From Escherichia phage vb_EcoM-VR5: DNA of 64,000 nt. The notes under the pieces were generated by a model. That model did no database searches, had not been told where the DNA came from, and was given only the letters and a program-made list of their open reading frames with translations. The DNA lies in sequence record NC_028881.1. The stretch is one strand, 5' to 3'. This document shows positions 3,442 through 20,114 of the stretch, one piece after another. How positions within the stretch are numbered: position 1 is the stretch's first letter; each line of letters starts with the position of its first letter. Position numbers and translations under genes: made by a program.

Positions 3442-4545
3442 TTAATAGACGTAATCGTATATAATACCAGCTTCCAATGCCGAACGGTGGACGATACGAC
3501 CGTTACGAGATTCCTGTACATCAACTTCCGGGTAATCACTAAGCATTTTGGCTAATACCGCCAGATGACAATAATATGGTGTATTCTCTTTAGTGGCTTT
3601 TTTCCAATCTGTACTTTCAGATGTTAATTTCTGAATGGCGTCCATAACCCACCAACCACACCAAATATACGCAGTACTACGAACAGGAAGTGGATGTACA
3701 TAAATTAAAGGACATTCTTCTGGAACAACAGGCTCTGCTTCTGCCACCGTAACAGACTTATTACCTGATTTAACTGAATTTGTAAAGCCTGTTTGCGATG
3801 CTGTAACTTCACAAGTATATGACTTCAAGCCTTCAGTGGATTCCGTTATTGCTCTTGTTGCTTCTGTTGAGTTGTCGTCCCATTTATATGCAAGAGTAGC
3901 GCCAGGAATAGCAGGGGACACAGAAGCTGTCAAATTGAATGGAACATCAACCGTCGCAGTAGACGGGCCTGAAATCTCAACAGTGAACTCAGGAAATGTA
4001 TTGTTTTCGACCGTAACAACTACTGCATCAGGATTAATAACTTGATTGTCATAATCTGCCGCAGAAACGGTAATTTGGCAAGTTAAAGAAACCGGTCCTG
4101 CAACAGTAGCGGTACGAGTAATATCTTTAGTAGTTTCACCAGTAGACCACAAATATGCTATTGTAGCTCCACCTGGTTCACCTGTTACATTAGCCGAAGC
4201 GTTATATTCCTGACCAACTTTAACAGTAGGAGTGGAAGTTGTTAATGTTGCAGTTGCAGCCATAGTCTTATTATTAACCGTGATGGTTGTTTGAGCCTCT
4301 GCCGTTTCAGGCTCTCCTTCTTCCGGCGTTGTGGTGGCAACAACTTTAATTACTTTTGAACCTGCTGGCCCAGCTGCAATATAATCCATAGTAGCAATAA
4401 CAGAATCTTGTGGAACATCATCAACGGTCCATACAAAAGATTCGGTACCAGCGACAGCGGCTCCAGCTCCAGTGGCAGTAAAATTAGTTGTTGCACCTAT
4501 AACCGCTGTAGGTGTTAAAGGGGCAATTGATACAGTATAAGCCAT
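3442..4545 (-). CDS. hoc: Hoc, highly immunogenic outer capsid protein
   Basis: 367 aa; N-terminal Ig-like repeats and C-terminal ...HPLPVRSTAYIWCGWWVMD...YPEVDVQESRNG closely match T4 Hoc. Confidence 0.9.
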   Translation of the reverse strand: MAYTVSIAPLTPTAVIGATTNFTATGAGAAVAGTESFVWTVDDVPQDSVIATMDYIAAGPAGSKVIKVVATTTPEEGEPETAEAQTTITVNNKTMAATATLTTSTPTVKVGQEYNASANVTGEPGGATIAYLWSTGETTKDITRTATVAGPVSLTCQITVSAADYDNQVINPDAVVVTVENNTFPEFTVEISGPSTATVDVPFNLTASVSPAIPGATLAYKWDDNSTEATRAITESTEGLKSYTCEVTASQTGFTNSVKSGNKSVTVAEAEPVVPEECPLIYVHPLPVRSTAYIWCGWWVMDAIQKLTSESTDWKKATKENTPYYCHLAVLAKMLSDYPEVDVQESRNGRIVHRSALEAGIIYDYVY

Positions 4546-4571
4546 AAAATCTCCAAAAGGCCCTAGTGGCC

Positions 4572-5255
4572 TTAGTTTAAACGAATAAAAGATGAGTTAC
4601 GTGTTTCACGAATAAGAATGGAACCGTCACGATTGATATAGTAAATCAAACTAAACAATGTTTGGTGTGCGCTTGCATGAGTAAAAGAAGTAGGGCGTTC
4701 TTTCCAGTCCGGGGTCTCTTTAATCCACTGGTAAATCCACCAAGGAAGAGTACAATAACCTGGGGCTTTGCCCAGCATAAGCAGATTAGGACTAAAATTT
4801 TCAGGTAATTTAAATTTAGGGTTTTCAGATTCAACAATCTTAGATACCGCTTCTTCGAACTTCTCTTCAACAAAAGGAGTTTCAACAACAGCTATTTCAA
4901 CTGTTTCTGGGATATCTTTGATTTCAATAACTTCAACAGGTTCGGCAGGGGCCGTCGGAGCGTCAAATAATAATTTAGCTTCAATTTTAGATTCTTCAAC
5001 ATTTGCCAGGTGAGCATTAGTGCCCTGAAGCTCATCGTCGGCATCGATTAAATCAGTAATAGATAAACCTTCAGTTTCAGGTATAGGTTCATCTGCTATA
5101 GCCTTAAGGGCTTCAGCGATGTCTATTACCAAGTTGTCAAAACTTTTAGTTTTCTTAAGTTTTAAACCGAACTGTTCGCCGTATTCGATTAACTTAGCTT
5201 TAGCTTCTTTTTTATCTTCGAGTGAACGAAGCTCTTCAATATATTGAGTATCCAT
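4572..5255 (-). CDS. inh: Inh-like protein (inhibitor of prohead protease), by position and size
   Basis: 227-aa acidic ORF between hoc and uvsW as in T4 (Inh 226 aa); late promoter upstream; no motif-level confirmation. Confidence 0.5.
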   Translation of the reverse strand: MDTQYIEELRSLEDKKEAKAKLIEYGEQFGLKLKKTKSFDNLVIDIAEALKAIADEPIPETEGLSITDLIDADDELQGTNAHLANVEESKIEAKLLFDAPTAPAEPVEVIEIKDIPETVEIAVVETPFVEEKFEEAVSKIVESENPKFKLPENFSPNLLMLGKAPGYCTLPWWIYQWIKETPDWKERPTSFTHASAHQTLFSLIYYINRDGSILIRETRNSSFIRLN

Positions 5256-5274
5256 AATTAGTCTCTTGTTGGTG

Positions 5275-5282
5275 TATAAATA
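5275..5282 (+). promoter_or_regulatory. late promoter TATAAATA upstream of uvsW
   Basis: Exact TATAAATA 29 nt upstream of uvsW ATG. Confidence 0.6.
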
Positions 5283-5288
5283 TAACTA

Positions 5289-5296
5289 TATTTATA
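5289..5296 (-). promoter_or_regulatory. late promoter (TATAAATA on minus strand) upstream of inh
   Basis: TATTTATA on plus strand 34 nt upstream of the inh start; divergent from the uvsW promoter. Confidence 0.5.
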
Positions 5297-5310
5297 ACTG
5301 AGAATTAGAC

Positions 5311-6807
5311 ATGCAAATTCAAGTACATTTTGATAATTTTAGTCATGTTCGTATTGAGTGTGATGAATCCACATTCTACGAACTTAGAGACTATTTCAGT
5401 TTTGAAGCTGATGGATACAAATTTAACCCTAAATATCGTTATGGTCAATGGGACGGGAGAATTCGTCTTCTAGATTATAACCGTAAACTTCCATACGGTT
5501 TAGTCCCACAAATTAAAAAATTCGCTGACCAGTTTGAATACTCTCTTTGGATAGACCCTCGTATTCTTGAACAAGAAGATATTTCTCGTGAAGATTTTGA
5601 CTCATGGGTGGCTTCCCAGGAAATTTATTCGGGTTCTACCAAGATTGAGCCTCATTGGTATCAGAGTGAAGCAGTATACAACGGCCTGACAAAACGTCGT
5701 GCAATTCTGAATTTACCTACATCTGCAGGTAAATCATTGATTCAGGCGCTCCTGAGTCGATATTACGTTGAGAACTATGAAGGTAAAATTTTAATCCTTG
5801 TCCCAACTACTGCACTCGTCGACCAGATGATTAATGACTTCATCGATTATCGCTTGTTCCCTAAATCTGCTATGCTTGGTATTCGTTCAGGTACTGCACG
5901 TGATTCAGATGCAATGATTTATGTTTCAACTTATCAGACTGCTATTAAACAACCTAAAGAATGGTTTGCCCAGTTTGGTATGTTTATGAACGATGAATGT
6001 CATTTGGCTACAGGTAAATCAATTTCTACTATTATCGAAGGCCTTACCAATTGTATGTTTAAATTTGGTTTGTCTGGTTCTTTAAAAGATGGTAAAGCTA
6101 ACCTTATGCAATACATGGGTTTGTTTGGTGATATTTTTAAACCCGTTTCCACCTCCCAATTAATGGAAGAAGGACAGGTCACTGATTTAAAAATAAACAG
6201 TATTTTCCTTCGTTACCCTGATGAATTCACCATTAAGATGAAAGGTAAAGATTACCAATCAGAAATTAAAGTCATTACTAAGGCTACTCGTCGTAATAAA
6301 TGGGTTGCTAATTTAGCTGTTAAACTCGCTAAGAAAGAAGAGAATGTATTCTTGATGTTTAAAAACATCGAGCATGGTAAAACTCTTTTTGAAATGGTTA
6401 AAGAGCAACATAAAGAAGTTTATTACGTATCAGGCGAAGTTAATACAGAAACTCGTAATGCTCTTAAGTTAATGGCTGAAAATGGTAAGGGTATTATTGT
6501 TGTGGCAAGTTATGGTGTATTTTCTACAGGTATTTCTGTTAAGAATCTCCATCACGTAATATTTGCCCATCCTGTAAAATCTAAAATTATTGTGCTGCAA
6601 ACCATCGGTCGTGTACTTCGTAAACATGCATCCAAGACCACCGCACAGGTTTGGGATATTATAGACGACATGGGCGTTAAGCCTAAATCAGCAAATGCCA
6701 AAAAGAAGTATGTTCATTTGAATTATGCATTAAAACATGCCTTAGAACGTATTCAACGTTATGCTGACGAAAAATTTAATTACGTAATGAAACAGGTGGA
6801 TTTATGA
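5311..6807 (+). CDS. uvsW: UvsW RNA-DNA/DNA-DNA helicase
   Basis: 498 aa; near-identical stretches to T4 UvsW (HWYQ..., LPTSAGKS, MNDECHLATGKSIS, VASYGVFSTGISVKNLHHV). Confidence 0.95.
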   Translation: MQIQVHFDNFSHVRIECDESTFYELRDYFSFEADGYKFNPKYRYGQWDGRIRLLDYNRKLPYGLVPQIKKFADQFEYSLWIDPRILEQEDISREDFDSWVASQEIYSGSTKIEPHWYQSEAVYNGLTKRRAILNLPTSAGKSLIQALLSRYYVENYEGKILILVPTTALVDQMINDFIDYRLFPKSAMLGIRSGTARDSDAMIYVSTYQTAIKQPKEWFAQFGMFMNDECHLATGKSISTIIEGLTNCMFKFGLSGSLKDGKANLMQYMGLFGDIFKPVSTSQLMEEGQVTDLKINSIFLRYPDEFTIKMKGKDYQSEIKVITKATRRNKWVANLAVKLAKKEENVFLMFKNIEHGKTLFEMVKEQHKEVYYVSGEVNTETRNALKLMAENGKGIIVVASYGVFSTGISVKNLHHVIFAHPVKSKIIVLQTIGRVLRKHASKTTAQVWDIIDDMGVKPKSANAKKKYVHLNYALKHALERIQRYADEKFNYVMKQVDL

Positions 6808-7636: not shown

Positions 7637-8070
7637 TACTTGCCTGCCTCAAATTGTCTCATCTCATGCATTGTCTTAAGGTTAAAACCCCGTGCCTTAA
7701 TAGCATCTAATGCCGAACTACAAAAGTCTTGTAATAAAGCCCAATACTGGATTGATGTATCGATTTTAATTACGCTTGAATCCGCAGCCATTACGGTCTT
7801 TAATTCCGACTTCTCGTACTGGTCCATACAAACCTCATCACCAGGCTCTCCACGTCCCGTGTAGAAATCTAATCTCTTCTTAAGAGAGGTCTTTTTCTGG
7901 ATTTCTAATCGCATTATCTCTTTCTTACAATTCGTATATAGTCTTAGCCATTTGCTGTGCAGCAAAACGTTGTTCTGTACTTCATACTGTAAACGAGTCC
8001 CATCAATCTTTAAATCTTCATCTAATGCATCTTGGAACGATTCTAATTTATATTCAATCTCTTTACTCAT
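7636..8070 (-). CDS. uvsY: UvsY recombination mediator
   Basis: ORF trimmed to internal ATG (MSKEIEYKLE...), 144 aa; strong match to T4 UvsY (TRLQYE..NNV.L.SKWL, LLQDFCSSALDAIKARGF, FEAGK terminus). Confidence 0.9.
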   Translation of the reverse strand: MSKEIEYKLESFQDALDEDLKIDGTRLQYEVQNNVLLHSKWLRLYTNCKKEIMRLEIQKKTSLKKRLDFYTGRGEPGDEVCMDQYEKSELKTVMAADSSVIKIDTSIQYWALLQDFCSSALDAIKARGFNLKTMHEMRQFEAGK

Positions 8071-8101
8071 AGCATGTTTCCTGTTGAATGACCGTAGGAC
8101 C

Positions 8102-8127
8102 ATTATACACCATTTGTTTGTACAGCA
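8102..8127 (-). promoter_or_regulatory. MotA-box middle promoter-like element upstream of uvsY
   Basis: Minus strand TGCTGTA-(13 nt)-TATAAT about 30 nt upstream of the uvsY ATG. Confidence 0.45.
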
Positions 8128-8128
8128 A

Positions 8129-8518
8129 TTAACCACTCTGTGAGAGCTGGATTCTAATTTGCTCTAATGTGTCCGGGTCGTCAACAATACTAAACTGGAC
8201 TGTTACTATAATAGAGTTGTCATCATAAACAGGGGTTACACCTACAGCAAGAGCAGAAATTCTGGGTTCGAAGTTCCGCACGGCGGAAACTATATTACGC
8301 TTAATGGTATCTGTTATTAATGGGGTAATATTCTCAAACAACTGATTGCTAATATCACATCCAAATTCAGGCATAAAAGGGCGAGAACCTTTACGAGTAG
8401 TAATAATGCCTAACAAACTATTTTTTACTGCACGGGACCCTGTAGCTTTAGCGACGTCTCTATTCCAAGACGTCCTCATTTCGGGGTCCAAATCTGAATA
8501 CATTTTATTGATATTCAT
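8129..8518 (-). CDS. 25: baseplate wedge subunit gp25
   Basis: 129 aa; matches T4 gp25 (LLGIITTRKGSRPF.PEFGCD, VRN.EPRI..LAV.V.PVYDD). Confidence 0.9.
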   Translation of the reverse strand: MNINKMYSDLDPEMRTSWNRDVAKATGSRAVKNSLLGIITTRKGSRPFMPEFGCDISNQLFENITPLITDTIKRNIVSAVRNFEPRISALAVGVTPVYDDNSIIVTVQFSIVDDPDTLEQIRIQLSQSG

Positions 8519-15361: not shown

Positions 15362-15368
15362 CAAAAAA

Positions 15369-15386
15369 GGAGAGCGTATGCTCTCC
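15369..15386. terminator. hairpin between convergent gp54 and the alt-side genes
   Basis: ggagagc-gtat-gctctcc preceded by A-run and followed by T-rich sequence. Confidence 0.6.
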
Positions 15387-15395
15387 TTTAGGGGT

Positions 15396-15686
15396 TTACT
15401 TACGGAACGAAATGAAACCTGCTGCAGTCATTAAGGGTTGCTTTTTAACAAATACAGTAACTGAAATAGGAGCTTCGGATTCAAGCTGACCTGTCACTAC
15501 ACCATTAAAGATGTTTTCGGTTTGCTCAGGTTGTGAAAAATTTTCAACCGGGCGTAAGTCGAACTGCTTGTCTTCACCGAAAACACGACGTAATTCATTA
15601 CCTACTGCACTGTCGAACTCTTCAGAAGCCGGGATAACGTTTTCAACTACCAGTTCTTGACCATTAAAGCGGAATGATGATTTCAT
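15396..15686 (-). CDS. hypothetical protein downstream of alt
   Basis: 96-aa ORF with GAGGAG RBS and an early-promoter cassette upstream. Confidence 0.55.
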   Translation of the reverse strand: MKSSFRFNGQELVVENVIPASEEFDSAVGNELRRVFGEDKQFDLRPVENFSQPEQTENIFNGVVTGQLESEAPISVTVFVKKQPLMTAAGFISFRK

Positions 15687-15746: not shown

Positions 15747-17795
15747 TTATCTGAATTTTTCCGGAAGGGCATTGATATCAGTCAATGCACACAGGATTTT
15801 ATCAACTTCGTTATCTGAAGCTTCTTTAGATTCTGTAAGGAACCCAGAGAAAGATAATGTTTTGTTTACTGGTTCCAACTTACCGGATTCCAAGAACAAA
15901 TCACCGTCGTAAACTACTTCGCTTTCGGCGACGATACGGTCCAGGTCCATTACTTCACACTCTAACAAGAAACGGTTAAAGGATTTAGACAGGCTAGCCG
16001 TAGTGGTCTTGTTAACTCGCAGTGTAGTACCACGTGGCAACAGAACTTCAGCCTCTTCAGGGTATTCAGACAAACTACCTGGCATAATAACCTTAATCTT
16101 CTCAATACCACGAATAACAAATGAGATATCAATCTTAGAATTACCTTCGGTTTTCAGTGCATTAGTTACTGTCTGGTTAGCATCTTGTGAACGCCAATCA
16201 TCAGAGAATGCATGACCATCAGTATAAGTAGACGAGAAGTCATCTAATGTGATACCCATACCATTGCCGGACATTTGTCCAGGAACGTTACTAAAAATGT
16301 TAGGCTTCAACGAAGTAGAAACATAGTTACGGAAGTAGAATGTACGGCCTGTAATATTGCGACGAAGAGTATTAGAATCACCACCCTGACCACGATAAAC
16401 CGTAGTACCCTTAGGCAAAGTTACACCTTTAGAGAACGCGCTATCAAGTTTCTCAATTTCACCTTCAACAAACTTAATGGAAGTATCCTCATCAGGAGTA
16501 CCAAGCAAGAACGTGTTAATATCATAGAACGAGTTCATACAATATTCTGATACAGCCTGTTTTTCTTCCTTGGTAAGGTCTGCTTCTGGTTCAACGTTCT
16601 GGGCCACTTCATACGAATTGGTAAAAACATCATCAATCATCTGAGTAATAATAGCCATAGGACGTTGAAGAGCCTGGGCCTTAACATCTACATCTACCGA
16701 AGAACCTGCAGTAATTTCACGAACAATTCTTTGCATGATTTCGTACGAGTTTGTAGTATCAAGATTTTTAAATTCTTCAGCCATCAATCTAACGATGTCA
16801 GAAGGGTAATTTCTGGTACGTAGCTTACCTTTAGCTTCGGATAATGCATCCATTAAAGAAGATACTTGAGGTGATAAACCGGAACTAGACGAAATATTAA
16901 TATAAGCCAATTCAGATTGGGTTTTCTTAGCAAAGGTCTTCATAGAGGCTTCAAATGATTCGAATTCTTTAGATTTCTTACCATCTGATTTATATAAAGG
17001 AACTTCGTCATCATACTTAGCAAAGATTTTAGCAGTCTCTGCATCGGCCTCAATATTTTCAGGAGTAACTGCGTATTGAGCCGCAATAGTAGCACGAACG
17101 TTTAATTTAGTACGAGAGATAACAGCCTTATCGGTACGCTTTTCTTCAACCTGCGCTACAGAAGCTACAACGGCTTCAACCTTACTTACGGCTTGGCCAG
17201 TTTTCTTGGAAACATAAACTTCGCCAACTTTAGAATCAACTTTAGTATAAAGGTCAGCATCAATTTCCGGCATGCCTTTGATGTCTTCGATATTCGCACC
17301 ACGACGTACTAAAAGAACGTAAGTATGTTTACCGCTGAACTGGAACATATCATTAACAACTTTAAACTTACCACCTGTACGAGCCATGGCCAAACGAGCC
17401 AATACACGTTGTACAGTAGGACCCTTACCTTTCATTTTCTTAGTAGGGAAACGGAACAGAACTGCATCCATTTTAAGTTTATTTACTTGTTCATATACCG
17501 TATCGAAAATAGTATTCAATGCACCAAGTGGGTCAGAACCAAGTCCACCTTTGAGTTCAGCCGGGGCACCTTTGCTTGACAAACTCATTAGAATAACATG
17601 AACATATTTGTCACCTGGCTTAACCATTTTAACTGCGTCTCCTTGAGACGCATAAGATACCATACGAGCCACAAGGTTATCATTACCTGGTGCTTGGATA
17701 GAGAAAATCTGTGGGATACCGGAACCTGGTTTAAGATTTGTTACTGGATAGTTTTTAGCTGAATCACTATCAAAAACTTCGTTTAAATTTTCCAT
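15747..17795 (-). CDS. alt: Alt-type ADP-ribosyltransferase (paralog A)
   Basis: 682 aa (same as T4 Alt); C-terminal ART motifs present (YRGQ arginine, VSTSL, EAE); N-terminal LNE motif resembling prohead-protease processing sites. Confidence 0.85.
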   Translation of the reverse strand: MENLNEVFDSDSAKNYPVTNLKPGSGIPQIFSIQAPGNDNLVARMVSYASQGDAVKMVKPGDKYVHVILMSLSSKGAPAELKGGLGSDPLGALNTIFDTVYEQVNKLKMDAVLFRFPTKKMKGKGPTVQRVLARLAMARTGGKFKVVNDMFQFSGKHTYVLLVRRGANIEDIKGMPEIDADLYTKVDSKVGEVYVSKKTGQAVSKVEAVVASVAQVEEKRTDKAVISRTKLNVRATIAAQYAVTPENIEADAETAKIFAKYDDEVPLYKSDGKKSKEFESFEASMKTFAKKTQSELAYINISSSSGLSPQVSSLMDALSEAKGKLRTRNYPSDIVRLMAEEFKNLDTTNSYEIMQRIVREITAGSSVDVDVKAQALQRPMAIITQMIDDVFTNSYEVAQNVEPEADLTKEEKQAVSEYCMNSFYDINTFLLGTPDEDTSIKFVEGEIEKLDSAFSKGVTLPKGTTVYRGQGGDSNTLRRNITGRTFYFRNYVSTSLKPNIFSNVPGQMSGNGMGITLDDFSSTYTDGHAFSDDWRSQDANQTVTNALKTEGNSKIDISFVIRGIEKIKVIMPGSLSEYPEEAEVLLPRGTTLRVNKTTTASLSKSFNRFLLECEVMDLDRIVAESEVVYDGDLFLESGKLEPVNKTLSFSGFLTESKEASDNEVDKILCALTDINALPEKFR

Positions 17796-17798
17796 TAT

Positions 17799-19853
17799 TT
17801 ACCCTTGGATGAATTTTTCTGGCATATCATTAAGATTCATACATGATGCTAAAAGAGGTAGTACATCAAACTTAGTTGATTTTACAAATGAGTCAAAAGA
17901 TACAGGGTTTTCGGTAGTATCGAAATCATCTTGATACACAACCAATTCACCGGTTTCCATTAACATGTTTCCATCATATACTACTGACTCTTGAAGCTCA
18001 TCTGATGTCATAACTTCGGCTTGAACTAATTTATTATTAGTTTTAGAAGTACCGTCGTTATAAGAAGCATCTGTTATTTTATTAATTTTGAGCATTAACC
18101 CACGTGGAAGAATAATTTCCATTTCGTTAGAAGGAGCAAGACCTGCACCAGGGAACACCACGTTTATTTTGTGAGCACCTGAAATAGCCCAACCGATACC
18201 AACTTGGTCGTCATTAGACTTAACAAGTCCTTCATCCGATTTGTCTATGGAAACATCTAAACGGACTTCATCAGGCAGAGTACCTACTGAAGCATCTGTC
18301 ATCCAAGTACCAAAAATATTAGGATATAAAGATGTAGATACAAAGTTTCTGAAATAGAATACCTTGTTTTTAACCATTGCTTCGTAAATAGGTGGAATCA
18401 TTTTCTGGGAACGATACAGTGTAATTCCTTCTGGTAATCTATCACCATTTTTAAAAGCATCATCTAAGTTATCAATAGCTTTTTCGATTTCCGGGCCAGT
18501 CAAAATACTAGAACGAACTTCTGGATTGTATATACCTAAAAGTGCATTGTTCATATCTTCATAACCGGAACCAACATACTCACGGATACCACGTTTTTGT
18601 GCTGGAGTATACTGGGTTTCATCTCGGTTATCAACAATAGAGAACATTGTCCAACCGGCAGCCAATGCAAATCCACGAATTTCTTTTTTAATGACCTTAG
18701 TCTTAGCGACGTTCCAAGAGCTTTCAGACAATTCCATGGCTACAGTATAATCTAAATTAGAATGTTTAGCAAAGAATTTTCCTAACCAGGCACCTTTATA
18801 TTCTTCAAGAACTTCGTTTAGTACTGAAGCAAAACTGCTTAATGCATCCATAGACGTTATAGGCTTACCGTGGATTTTTTGGAATGCACGAACTTTAACA
18901 TCATGGTCGACTTCTTTTATTTTGCTTTTAGTTACTATTCCGCTATCGGCAAAGGCATCACCAACACCATTTATATTTGTAACTGTATTAAGAACACTTT
19001 CTAAAGAAAACGATGCGGTAGAAATAGTAGATAATTCGTTAGATTGTGGAATAAGTGGCGCGGTAGCAGGTTTACTTAATTCGGATGCAGAAGCTTCAAA
19101 TTTGGTAAACATAGGTGTTTCAAAACGCGCTGATTCTAAGGATTGCGACATAGCAATAGCACGTCGTGAAATCTTGGTCTTAGTAATAACGGTTTTATCT
19201 GTACGGCGTTCTTCAACCTTAGCAATACTACCTGCAATAGCGGTTTCTTTAGTAACCTGTACACCTTCTTTTTTGCTTACATAAACATCACCAACATCAG
19301 AATCAACTTTAGTATAAAGTTCAGCATTAATTTCTGGAATACCTTTGATGTCTTCAATATTAGCTTGTTTACGGACAACTAAAATATAAGTATGCTTGCC
19401 AGTGAATTCATACATGGCAGGAACTACTTTAAAACGGCCACCAGTTTTCTGTGCAACTAAACGTTGAATAAGGCGCTGTACGATAGGACCTTGTCCTTTC
19501 ATTTTCTTAGTAGGAAAACGGAACATAACCGCGTCCATACGAAGTTTTTTAACTTGCTCGTATACTACATCAAAAATGGTATTAATAGCATCAATAGGAG
19601 TTGCTCCTAAGCCACCTTTTAATTCGGCAGGGGCGCCTTTGGCTGACAGACTCATTAAAATAACGTGAGCATATTTGTCGCCTAATTTAACTTGTTTGAT
19701 AGCATCACCTTCAGATGAATATGACACCATACGTGCTACCAATTGAGACTCAACGCCGCCAATCTTCCAAATCTGTGGTACTTTAAGTTTCGGGTTCAAG
19801 TTTACAGTAGGTAATGTACCTTCAGACTCGAACACTTCATTTAATTGGGTCAT
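17799..19853 (-). CDS. Alt-type ADP-ribosyltransferase (paralog B)
   Basis: 684 aa; N-terminal 230 aa highly similar to paralog A, central region divergent, ART motifs retained (YRSQ, VSTSL, EME). Confidence 0.8.
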   Translation of the reverse strand: MTQLNEVFESEGTLPTVNLNPKLKVPQIWKIGGVESQLVARMVSYSSEGDAIKQVKLGDKYAHVILMSLSAKGAPAELKGGLGATPIDAINTIFDVVYEQVKKLRMDAVMFRFPTKKMKGQGPIVQRLIQRLVAQKTGGRFKVVPAMYEFTGKHTYILVVRKQANIEDIKGIPEINAELYTKVDSDVGDVYVSKKEGVQVTKETAIAGSIAKVEERRTDKTVITKTKISRRAIAMSQSLESARFETPMFTKFEASASELSKPATAPLIPQSNELSTISTASFSLESVLNTVTNINGVGDAFADSGIVTKSKIKEVDHDVKVRAFQKIHGKPITSMDALSSFASVLNEVLEEYKGAWLGKFFAKHSNLDYTVAMELSESSWNVAKTKVIKKEIRGFALAAGWTMFSIVDNRDETQYTPAQKRGIREYVGSGYEDMNNALLGIYNPEVRSSILTGPEIEKAIDNLDDAFKNGDRLPEGITLYRSQKMIPPIYEAMVKNKVFYFRNFVSTSLYPNIFGTWMTDASVGTLPDEVRLDVSIDKSDEGLVKSNDDQVGIGWAISGAHKINVVFPGAGLAPSNEMEIILPRGLMLKINKITDASYNDGTSKTNNKLVQAEVMTSDELQESVVYDGNMLMETGELVVYQDDFDTTENPVSFDSFVKSTKFDVLPLLASCMNLNDMPEKFIQG

Positions 19854-19889
19854 AATAATTCCTCTCTAATAACCTTATTTATGCCATAA

Positions 19890-19903
19890 AGGGCCCGAAG
19901 GCC
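19890..19903 (-). terminator. GC tetraloop hairpin upstream of Alt paralog B
   Basis: gggcc-cgaa-ggccc (UUCG loop in minus-strand RNA) followed by T-rich tract on minus strand. Confidence 0.5.
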
Positions 19904-19907
19904 CATA

Positions 19908-20114
19908 TCAGTATAGTGGAACAATAGGGACTAAAGTTCGATATAGCTCGAAATTATATCCTTTTTCATATTTTGATAACTTTCCTGCAAATACTTCAAA
20001 CTCATCACGCGAGTTGAAATCAAGGATAGTCGTTGTTACAGAGGTAGAAACTTCACCAGAGCCGTTACCACCTTGACGTTGTGCAATAATAACTAATTCT
20101 AAATAAGCTTTCAT
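19908..20114 (-). CDS. hypothetical protein downstream of DNA ligase
   Basis: ORF trimmed to internal ATG (MKAYLELVII...) so that it abuts rather than overlaps the ligase stop; 68 aa. Confidence 0.5.
   Translation of the reverse strand: MKAYLELVIIAQRQGGNGSGEVSTSVTTTILDFNSRDEFEVFAGKLSKYEKGYNFELYRTLVPIVPLY

Follow-up and report, generated by a model that had tools for sequence, protein, structure and literature searches.

Alt is a textbook example of an enzyme that a phage injects into its host. Here we study the alt locus of Escherichia phage vB_EcoM-VR5, a T4-like Dhakavirus, in a stretch of 64,000 nucleotides (nt) of sequence record NC_028881.1 (the window; position 1 is its first letter). 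In T4 this ADP-ribosyltransferase (ART) becomes part of the prohead core in about 40 copies; the protease gp21 trims it, and once it has entered the host with the injected DNA it modifies RNA polymerase alpha and further host proteins by ADP-ribosylation (PMC9026906, PMC5512222). The prohead-protease cuts in T4 Alt lie at ITE-6 and LTE-619 (PMC5694885). T4 has one functional alt copy, and according to the annotation of its record alt.-1/alt.-2 arose long ago by duplication of the initial part of alt. The second of the full-length alt genes in phage AR1 starts exactly as T4 alt.-1 does, with MELITELFDGASAP (5066-5451 of T4 locus L004 and 3531-5588 of AR1 locus L010), and thus alt.-1/alt.-2 are a relic of an AR1-type downstream copy.

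The tandem arrangement of alt genes is already known, both from annotation and from the literature. Tandem genes are annotated as alta/altb in JS98, JS10 and IME08 and as alt/alt' in Bp7. Three copies are annotated in some Dhakaviruses (E33 and 04086) and two in the Tequatrovirus AR1 and the Moonvirus Merlin. A 2014 paper described the duplication in Ac42, JS98 and Bp7 and reported that Alt is split in ZZ1, where one protein holds the N domain and another the payload, i.e. the centre plus the ART domain (PMC4177764). With tblastn we located Alt homologues at 1,788 places in 1,221 phage records. Every multi-copy locus that we examined, across three genera, had two or three annotated full-length copies, the exception being the third copy of 04086 with 608 amino acids (aa). 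In 04086 this shortened copy is preceded by an unannotated gap of 740 nt (7753-8491 of locus L007), which could mark a gene that has been disrupted or result from a fault in the annotation or the assembly. Since many T4-like phages have annotated tandem alt genes, the finding of two genes in VR5 is ordinary in itself and matters as a lead only. What we add is the documented mosaic structure of the two genes and an AltB payload lineage which apart from VR5 is known only from metagenomes, both of them leads and not surprises.

The reading that we consider likely is that VR5 carries two intact Alts, in which Dhakavirus N-domain frames bear recombined and divergent payloads, and that both proteins are injected and have different host targets. 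The upstream, ligase-proximal gene encodes AltA (684 aa, 17799-19853) and the downstream, gp54-proximal gene encodes AltB (682 aa, 15747-17795), where the label AltA was taken from the JS98 gene name alta. Both genes are on the minus strand and lie head to tail, with 3 nt between the stop codon of AltA and the ATG of AltB. We found exact protein matches in the VR5 records for AltB (AIZ01984.1/YP_009205891.1) and for AltA (AIZ01985.1/YP_009205892.1), and the names in these records are already Alt-like ADP-ribosyltransferase. In Pfam, both proteins matched PF03496 (ADP-ribosyltransferase exoenzyme), with the two E-values being 1e-22 and 2e-31. Both matched PHROG 802 ('Alt-like RNA polymerase ADP-ribosyltransferase') over their full length (AltB aa 1-681, E 2e-224; AltA aa 1-683, E 4e-253), and the precomputed assignments of relatives, among them P0109, which is identical to AltA, include PF26846 (Tevenvirinae_ADPRT). 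Judged by these matches to PHROG 802, PF26846 and PF03496, both VR5 proteins belong to the T4 Alt-like ADP-ribosyltransferase family. A search of both proteins against PDB chain sequences gave nothing at E <= 0.01, a local Pfam search with the N-terminal and central segments gave nothing even at E <= 10, and an NCBIfam search returned no match.

We divided each protein into four segments, based on an alignment with T4 Alt and the Dhakavirus copies and with 83 homologues. AltA starts with an alpha/beta N domain of the A type (aa 1-225, 19179-19853) that carries the protease motif LNE-6, followed by an all-helical centre of class I (aa 226-420, 18594-19178). The ART catalytic domain (aa 421-622, 17988-18593) contains R481, S506-T-S508 and E577-M-E579 and terminates at LQE-622; the C-terminal tail (aa 623-684, 17799-17987) is the counterpart of the T4 Alt C-terminal propeptide. 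The corresponding segments of AltB are a B-type alpha/beta N domain, again with an LNE-6 motif (aa 1-228, 17112-17795), an all-helical class III centre (aa 229-405, 16581-17111), an ART domain with R468, S493-T-S495 and E581-A-E583 that terminates at VAE-624 (aa 406-624, 15924-16580), and a tail (aa 625-682 plus the stop, 15747-15923). In the AlphaFold2 models the mean predicted local distance difference test score was 83.7 for AltA and 77.6 for AltB. The tails are helical in part and largely of low confidence, and the same low confidence applies to a long insert of ∼40 aa between S-T-S and E-x-E in AltB (aa 506-546), which differs from AltA. The C-terminal domain shows the ART fold of the R-S-E clade of mono-ARTs (C3/VIP2-like). 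Each VR5 Alt is thereby modelled as an alpha/beta N domain of ∼225 aa, a helical centre of ∼180 aa, a C3/VIP2-type R-S-E ART domain and a tail of ∼60 aa.

An earlier, sequence-only reading of this locus had proposed two full-length Alt-like reading frames of 682 and 684 aa, lying head to tail, which share about 230 N-terminal residues with an LNE motif at residues 4-6 and keep the ART signature of Arg, STS and E-x-E. Our results agree with this description: its coordinates are exact, the identity over residues 1-225 is 65.8%, LNE occupies residues 4-6 in both proteins and all catalytic residues listed above are intact on the alignment of the 83 homologues, so neither copy has a disrupted catalytic site. 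The columns of the catalytic Arg, S-T-S and E-x-E are invariant or at least 90% conserved among these homologues. The common Dhakavirus altb payload (JS98_altb, ESCO10_down and E33_c3) has S-A-S (FVSASL) and not S-T-S at the motif that binds nicotinamide adenine dinucleotide; VR5 AltB keeps S-T-S.

To compare the histories of the individual segments we contrasted their identities to T4 Alt and to the Dhakavirus copies. The N domain of AltA is 92-93% identical to Dhakavirus alta and 42% to T4 Alt, and its tail shows 82-85% and 51-53%, respectively. For the payload of AltA the order is reversed: the centre is 53% identical to T4 Alt compared to 31-42% for other Dhakavirus alta, and the ART domain reaches 80% to T4 Alt compared to only 59-66% for Dhakavirus alta. 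The N domain of AltB is 96% identical to Dhakavirus altb and ∼40% to T4 Alt. Beyond residue ∼230, AltB has at most 43% identity to its Dhakavirus counterpart and 14-37% to T4 Alt, with 21-24% to JS98-type altb and 12-15% to AltA and T4 in the centre, and 39-40% to JS98-type altb in the ART domain (payload lineage beta2). AltA thus appears to be a Dhakavirus frame with a T4-type payload, and AltB a Dhakavirus B-type N domain with a payload from a lineage otherwise known from metagenomes only. In these comparisons the N domain varies with the phage lineage and with its place in the array, and so does the tail in AltA.

The breakpoints can be located by comparison with the closest sequenced relative in our collection, Dhakavirus vB_EcoM_ESCO10, which is ∼95% identical at the nt level over the neighbouring 24 kb. 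AltB is 93-100% identical to ESCO10 through most of the N domain, drops to background within ∼200 nt, stays there from ∼17083 to 15786 (∼40-60%, the level of a forced global alignment) and regains 93-100% within roughly 60 nt of the stop, the first full window beyond it being at this level again. The replaced cassette in AltB (15759-17106, minus strand) has no nt similarity to ESCO10, and both its flanks are 89-97% identical. Inside AltA a divergent, T4-like cassette covers aa ∼269-578 (18120-19047, minus strand) and shows 40-78% nt identity to ESCO10, with flanks of ∼88-89% by BLASTN. A megablast search of 50,697 phage records with the locus as query gave no full-length match and a best cover of 55%, and the VR5 record itself was not among the matches; tblastn with AltB residues 236-682 against the same records gave nothing above 35% identity. 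Relatives of the AltB payload were found in metagenomes, namely a 94% identical protein on a 3-kb ENA contig and an 81% identical protein encoded, in the same two-gene arrangement, on a Dhakavirus-like contig of 173 kb. Between AltB and these relatives the ratio of nonsynonymous to synonymous substitution rates (dN/dS) was 0.03-0.21 in every segment, and therefore AltB is a working gene under purifying selection. The gene structure, the intact motifs, the mosaicism and the purifying selection are all directly supported by the data. As AltB is conserved in metagenomes and otherwise absent from the phage records searched, it is a good candidate for follow-up.

The purifying selection bears on the possibility that one copy is redundant and decays towards the state of T4 alt.-1/alt.-2, with no functional contribution. 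T4 has just such a relic of a second copy and Alt is dispensable in T4 (PMC9026906). However, both VR5 genes have their full length and none of the catalytic or family-invariant residues is missing, the low dN/dS extends over every segment of AltB and its metagenomic relatives, and apart from the third copy of 04086 only full-length copies occur in the multi-copy loci. We regard decay, which was disfavoured already, as very improbable.

The overall similarity of AltA and AltB (38% identity by BLASTP, E 1e-139) is distributed unevenly: the N domain reaches 65.8%, the centre 12-13%, the ART domain 34.5% and the tail 32%. The sequence-only reading placed the divergence at residues ∼230-450 and called the two central regions unrelated. 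The centres are indeed the least similar segment, but the divergence is not confined to them as the ART domains are themselves only ∼35% identical. Neither pairwise BLASTP nor a shuffle test detected any similarity between the two centres (local-alignment z = 0.66 against shuffles), and at this level the description as unrelated holds. The picture changes at the profile level. The centres of 130 Alt proteins fall into three BLAST-linked classes: class I, the T4/AltA type, with 93 members, class II, the E33_c1/SP18 type, with 22, and class III, the altb type which includes AltB, with 10. Profile-profile comparison linked class III to class II with a probability of 98.5% (E 4e-15, 170 columns), and the merged profile of both was collinear with the class I centre (hhalign 94.6%, E 6e-8, 157 columns), a score that comes partly from conserved segment edges. 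In this weak sense both centres align to the same segment of T4 Alt. Both are all-helical in the models, and the models of AltA and AltB both superpose on one BFVD model, that of SP18 Alt, at a template modelling score of 0.67 over ∼650 columns, most of which the N and ART domains alone could give. The profiles and models make it most likely, although not proven, that the two centres are extremely divergent homologues of a common helical architecture and not unrelated insertions.

We then placed the VR5 modules among those of other phages. Dhakavirus N domains form the types A, B and C, which are ∼60-68% identical to each other and only 40-46% to T4; comparable values within a genus were observed elsewhere (AR1_1 and AR1_2 67%, Merlin_1 and Merlin_2 59%). 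The A and B N domains of VR5 are 66% identical in aa and ∼71% in nt. Since every other Dhakavirus pair shows the same identity, we rejected a recent gene conversion between them. Different payloads sit on the same type of N domain: the A type is found with alpha1, alpha2 and T payloads, and the B type, whose N domains are mutually 75-98% identical, with beta1, beta2 and T payloads and those of P0004 and P0005. The B-type N domains are 86-96% identical to that of VR5 AltB, except for the shorter third copy of phage 04086 with 82%. Payload affinities also cross genera, as VR5 AltA groups with T4 and AR1_1 and JS98 altb with AR1_2 (centre 47%, ART 57%). Among 889 protein pairs with an N-domain identity of at least 85% the payload identity was below 45% in 55, and the five pairs with an N-domain identity of at most 50% and a payload identity of at least 60% all matched T4 with Dhakavirus T-payload proteins (7,503 pairs overall). 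Split Alts, with an N domain of ∼229 aa and a payload of ∼463 aa, were seen in the Acinetobacter phages ZZ1 and Henu6 (BFVD I3WW50, A0A410T5F4 and A0A410T542); they are a natural experiment on the independence of the modules.

The same data can be set against a simpler history, in which the gene was duplicated in place and both copies then diverged in the ordinary way, fastest in the centre, without any exchange of cassettes. The sequence-only reading took the two genes for paralogs from a tandem duplication. They are tandem paralogues, and that part holds; they are collinear with the same four-part architecture, their centres are probably remote homologues, and the identities of N domain and payload correlate with r = 0.78 over the 7,503 protein pairs. 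The genes are nevertheless mosaics, which the sequence-only reading overlooked, as it did the earlier annotation and publication of the arrangement. Ordinary divergence does not account well for breakpoints at which AltB falls from 93-100% nt identity to background within ∼200 nt despite a genome backbone of ∼95%, nor for an ART domain in AltA that is closer to T4 than to Dhakavirus alta between an N domain and a tail with 82-93% identity to Dhakavirus. Furthermore the T-type payload found on an A-type N domain in VR5 is joined to N domains of the B type in Bp7 and FB. We therefore consider divergence in place unlikely. Under the preferred reading, in which cassettes were recombined, the payloads would be old and deeply divergent allelic lineages that were recombined onto lineage-specific N domains.

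Several observations weigh against this reading. The correlation of r = 0.78 implies that cassette exchange is occasional and not the rule. That N domains are specific to a genus could also be due to concerted evolution and not to a transfer of payloads. Either payload cassettes were exchanged or N domains were homogenised within a lineage, and on the alignments the boundary at residues ∼225-270 is in both cases a recombination joint. With regard to expression and processing, the late-promoter-like element described below begins with C, not T, at position 1, and P3 of the presumed C-terminal cleavage site of AltB is Val (VAE-624) and not Leu or Ile. Finally, we infer distinct target specificities from sequence divergence only.

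The sequence upstream of AltA resembles that of T4 alt. The element cATAAATA (19876-19883, minus strand) lies 23 nt upstream of the AltA ATG and matches the site of the late promoter TATAAATA before T4 alt, a ribosome-binding site GAGAGG for AltA follows at 19861-19866 (minus strand), and a GC hairpin after alt.1, GGGCCTTCGGGCCC (19891-19904, minus strand), corresponds to the hairpin that precedes the late promoter of T4 alt. The order of hairpin, promoter element and GAGAGG is that of T4 alt (hairpin, TATAAATA, GAGAGG). The exact late-promoter consensus TATAAATA was not found upstream of AltA or AltB, where cATAAATA alone is present, and scans of the locus for sigma-70 promoters and terminators stayed at background level. 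It is likely from this layout that a late promoter, AltA, AltB and alt.-3 form one transcription unit, and AltA and AltB would then both be made late.

By motif comparison LQE-622 of AltA aligns with the T4 cleavage site LTE-619 and AltB has VAE-624 at that place; the Glu of both the N-terminal and the C-terminal candidate cleavage motifs is invariant in the 83 sequences. Because of the homology, the conserved motifs and the late-promoter context both VR5 Alts probably act as T4 Alt does, and by analogy they are probably packaged, trimmed and injected like it. Packaging, processing, activity and distinct targets are in this respect what we infer for VR5. Both proteins would be incorporated into the prohead core, gp21 would trim them at L-x-E-6 and near residue 620, and they would enter the cell together with the phage DNA. 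There they could ADP-ribosylate arginines of different sets of host proteins, i.e. takeover targets of the RNA polymerase alpha type and/or defence or toxin proteins, and two payloads would widen the target range of the phage.

The sequence-only reading had suggested that the two paralogs differ in target specificity and that both are potentially packaged, and as proposals both are reasonable. Distinct target sets for AltA and AltB are plausible and likely because the centres, the insert between S-T-S and E-x-E in AltB and the residues directly before E-x-E differ (GLAPSNEME in AltA, LSEYPEEAE in AltB). Alternatively, both proteins might modify the same principal target as T4 Alt, Arg265 of RNA polymerase alpha, so that the duplication would serve dosage or packaging stoichiometry. 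Both are members of the Alt family and E-x-E in both predicts arginine specificity; moreover T4 Alt is promiscuous in the account of Depping et al. 2005 given in PMC5512222. This has to be set against ART domains with ∼35% identity, centres without pairwise similarity and the differences in the insert and before E-x-E. In addition, a 2025 preprint reports that T4 Alt aids the evasion of Mokosh type I and that Bas37 Alt is unable to substitute for it. Against Mokosh the two orthologues are not interchangeable and therefore payload identity matters functionally. We give a shared principal target only a small chance.

A broader picture is possible, and we offer it tentatively. The Tevenvirinae alt locus might be a combinatorial array of injected effectors, where the genus-specific N domain, together with the C-terminal propeptide, would be a packaging and ejection adaptor matched to the head core, and ancient payload cassettes would be shuffled between positions and genera. 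Selection by host defences would keep the payloads diverse, in line with the action, specific to its payload, that T4 Alt has against Mokosh type I, and AltB would be a lineage with a novel host target. A catalogue of the naturally shuffled payloads on constant N domains would provide a panel for separating the determinants of target choice from those of packaging.

The locus lies between DNA ligase gp30/alt.1 and alt.-3/gp54, which is the position of the single alt in T4. The neighbours are those of the T4 alt locus: the plus strand carries gp29, gp48 and gp54, and the minus strand alt.-3, alt.1 and gp30. The alt genes are on the strand opposite to the baseplate genes, as expected for T4 Alt-like genes. 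Between ligase and AltA, the alt.1 homologue (∼19908-20114, minus strand) has only 52-67% nt identity to ESCO10, with 90-97% in the adjoining sequence, and therefore the mosaic zone reaches beyond the alt genes. The final gene of the minus-strand unit, the alt.-3 homologue (DUF5498, 15396-15686, minus strand), was retained irrespective of the payload type in the loci examined. A terminator-like hairpin (15366-15389, no strand assigned) separates the convergent genes gp54 and alt.-3; its strong 10-bp stem with A and T runs on its sides looks like a bidirectional terminator.

Compared to the described systems, the VR5 proteins share with T4 Alt (gpAlt, NP_049811) the locus, the length, the four-part architecture, the residues R, S-T-S and E-x-E and the N-terminal motif L/I-x-E-6. 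AltA is the closer of the two, with LQE-622 aligned to LTE-619, a centre that is 53% and an ART domain that is 80% identical. T4 differs in having one functional copy plus the alt.-1/alt.-2 relic, and the VR5 N domains are only 40-42% and the AltB payload 14-37% identical to it. JS98, JS10, IME08, Bp7 and other Dhakaviruses have the same tandem arrangement and A and B N domains that are 92-96% identical to those of VR5, but their payloads differ: VR5 AltA has a T4-type payload instead of the usual alta one, and VR5 AltB has beta2. The C3, VIP2, iota and Vis toxins lack the large N-terminal domain and the helical centre of the Alt proteins; they are secreted, whereas Alt proteins are expected to enter the cell via the phage head. 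In polymorphic toxin systems a conserved N-terminal delivery module is combined with effector parts that are exchanged by recombination. The Alt N domains fit this pattern, as one type of N-terminal module carries several non-orthologous payloads. No cognate immunity gene or silent array of payload cassettes is annotated in the loci examined, where no search aimed at them was made. The internal proteins of T4 are diverse and have a capsid-targeting sequence, CTS, that is conserved (PMC3012670). Like both of these, the VR5 Alts would combine a conserved N-terminal module for delivery or packaging with variable, recombining effector parts, and we mean this as an analogy only. The differences are that the variable part of the Alts always keeps its ART chemistry and that the conserved module is a folded domain of 225 aa and not a CTS of 10 aa.

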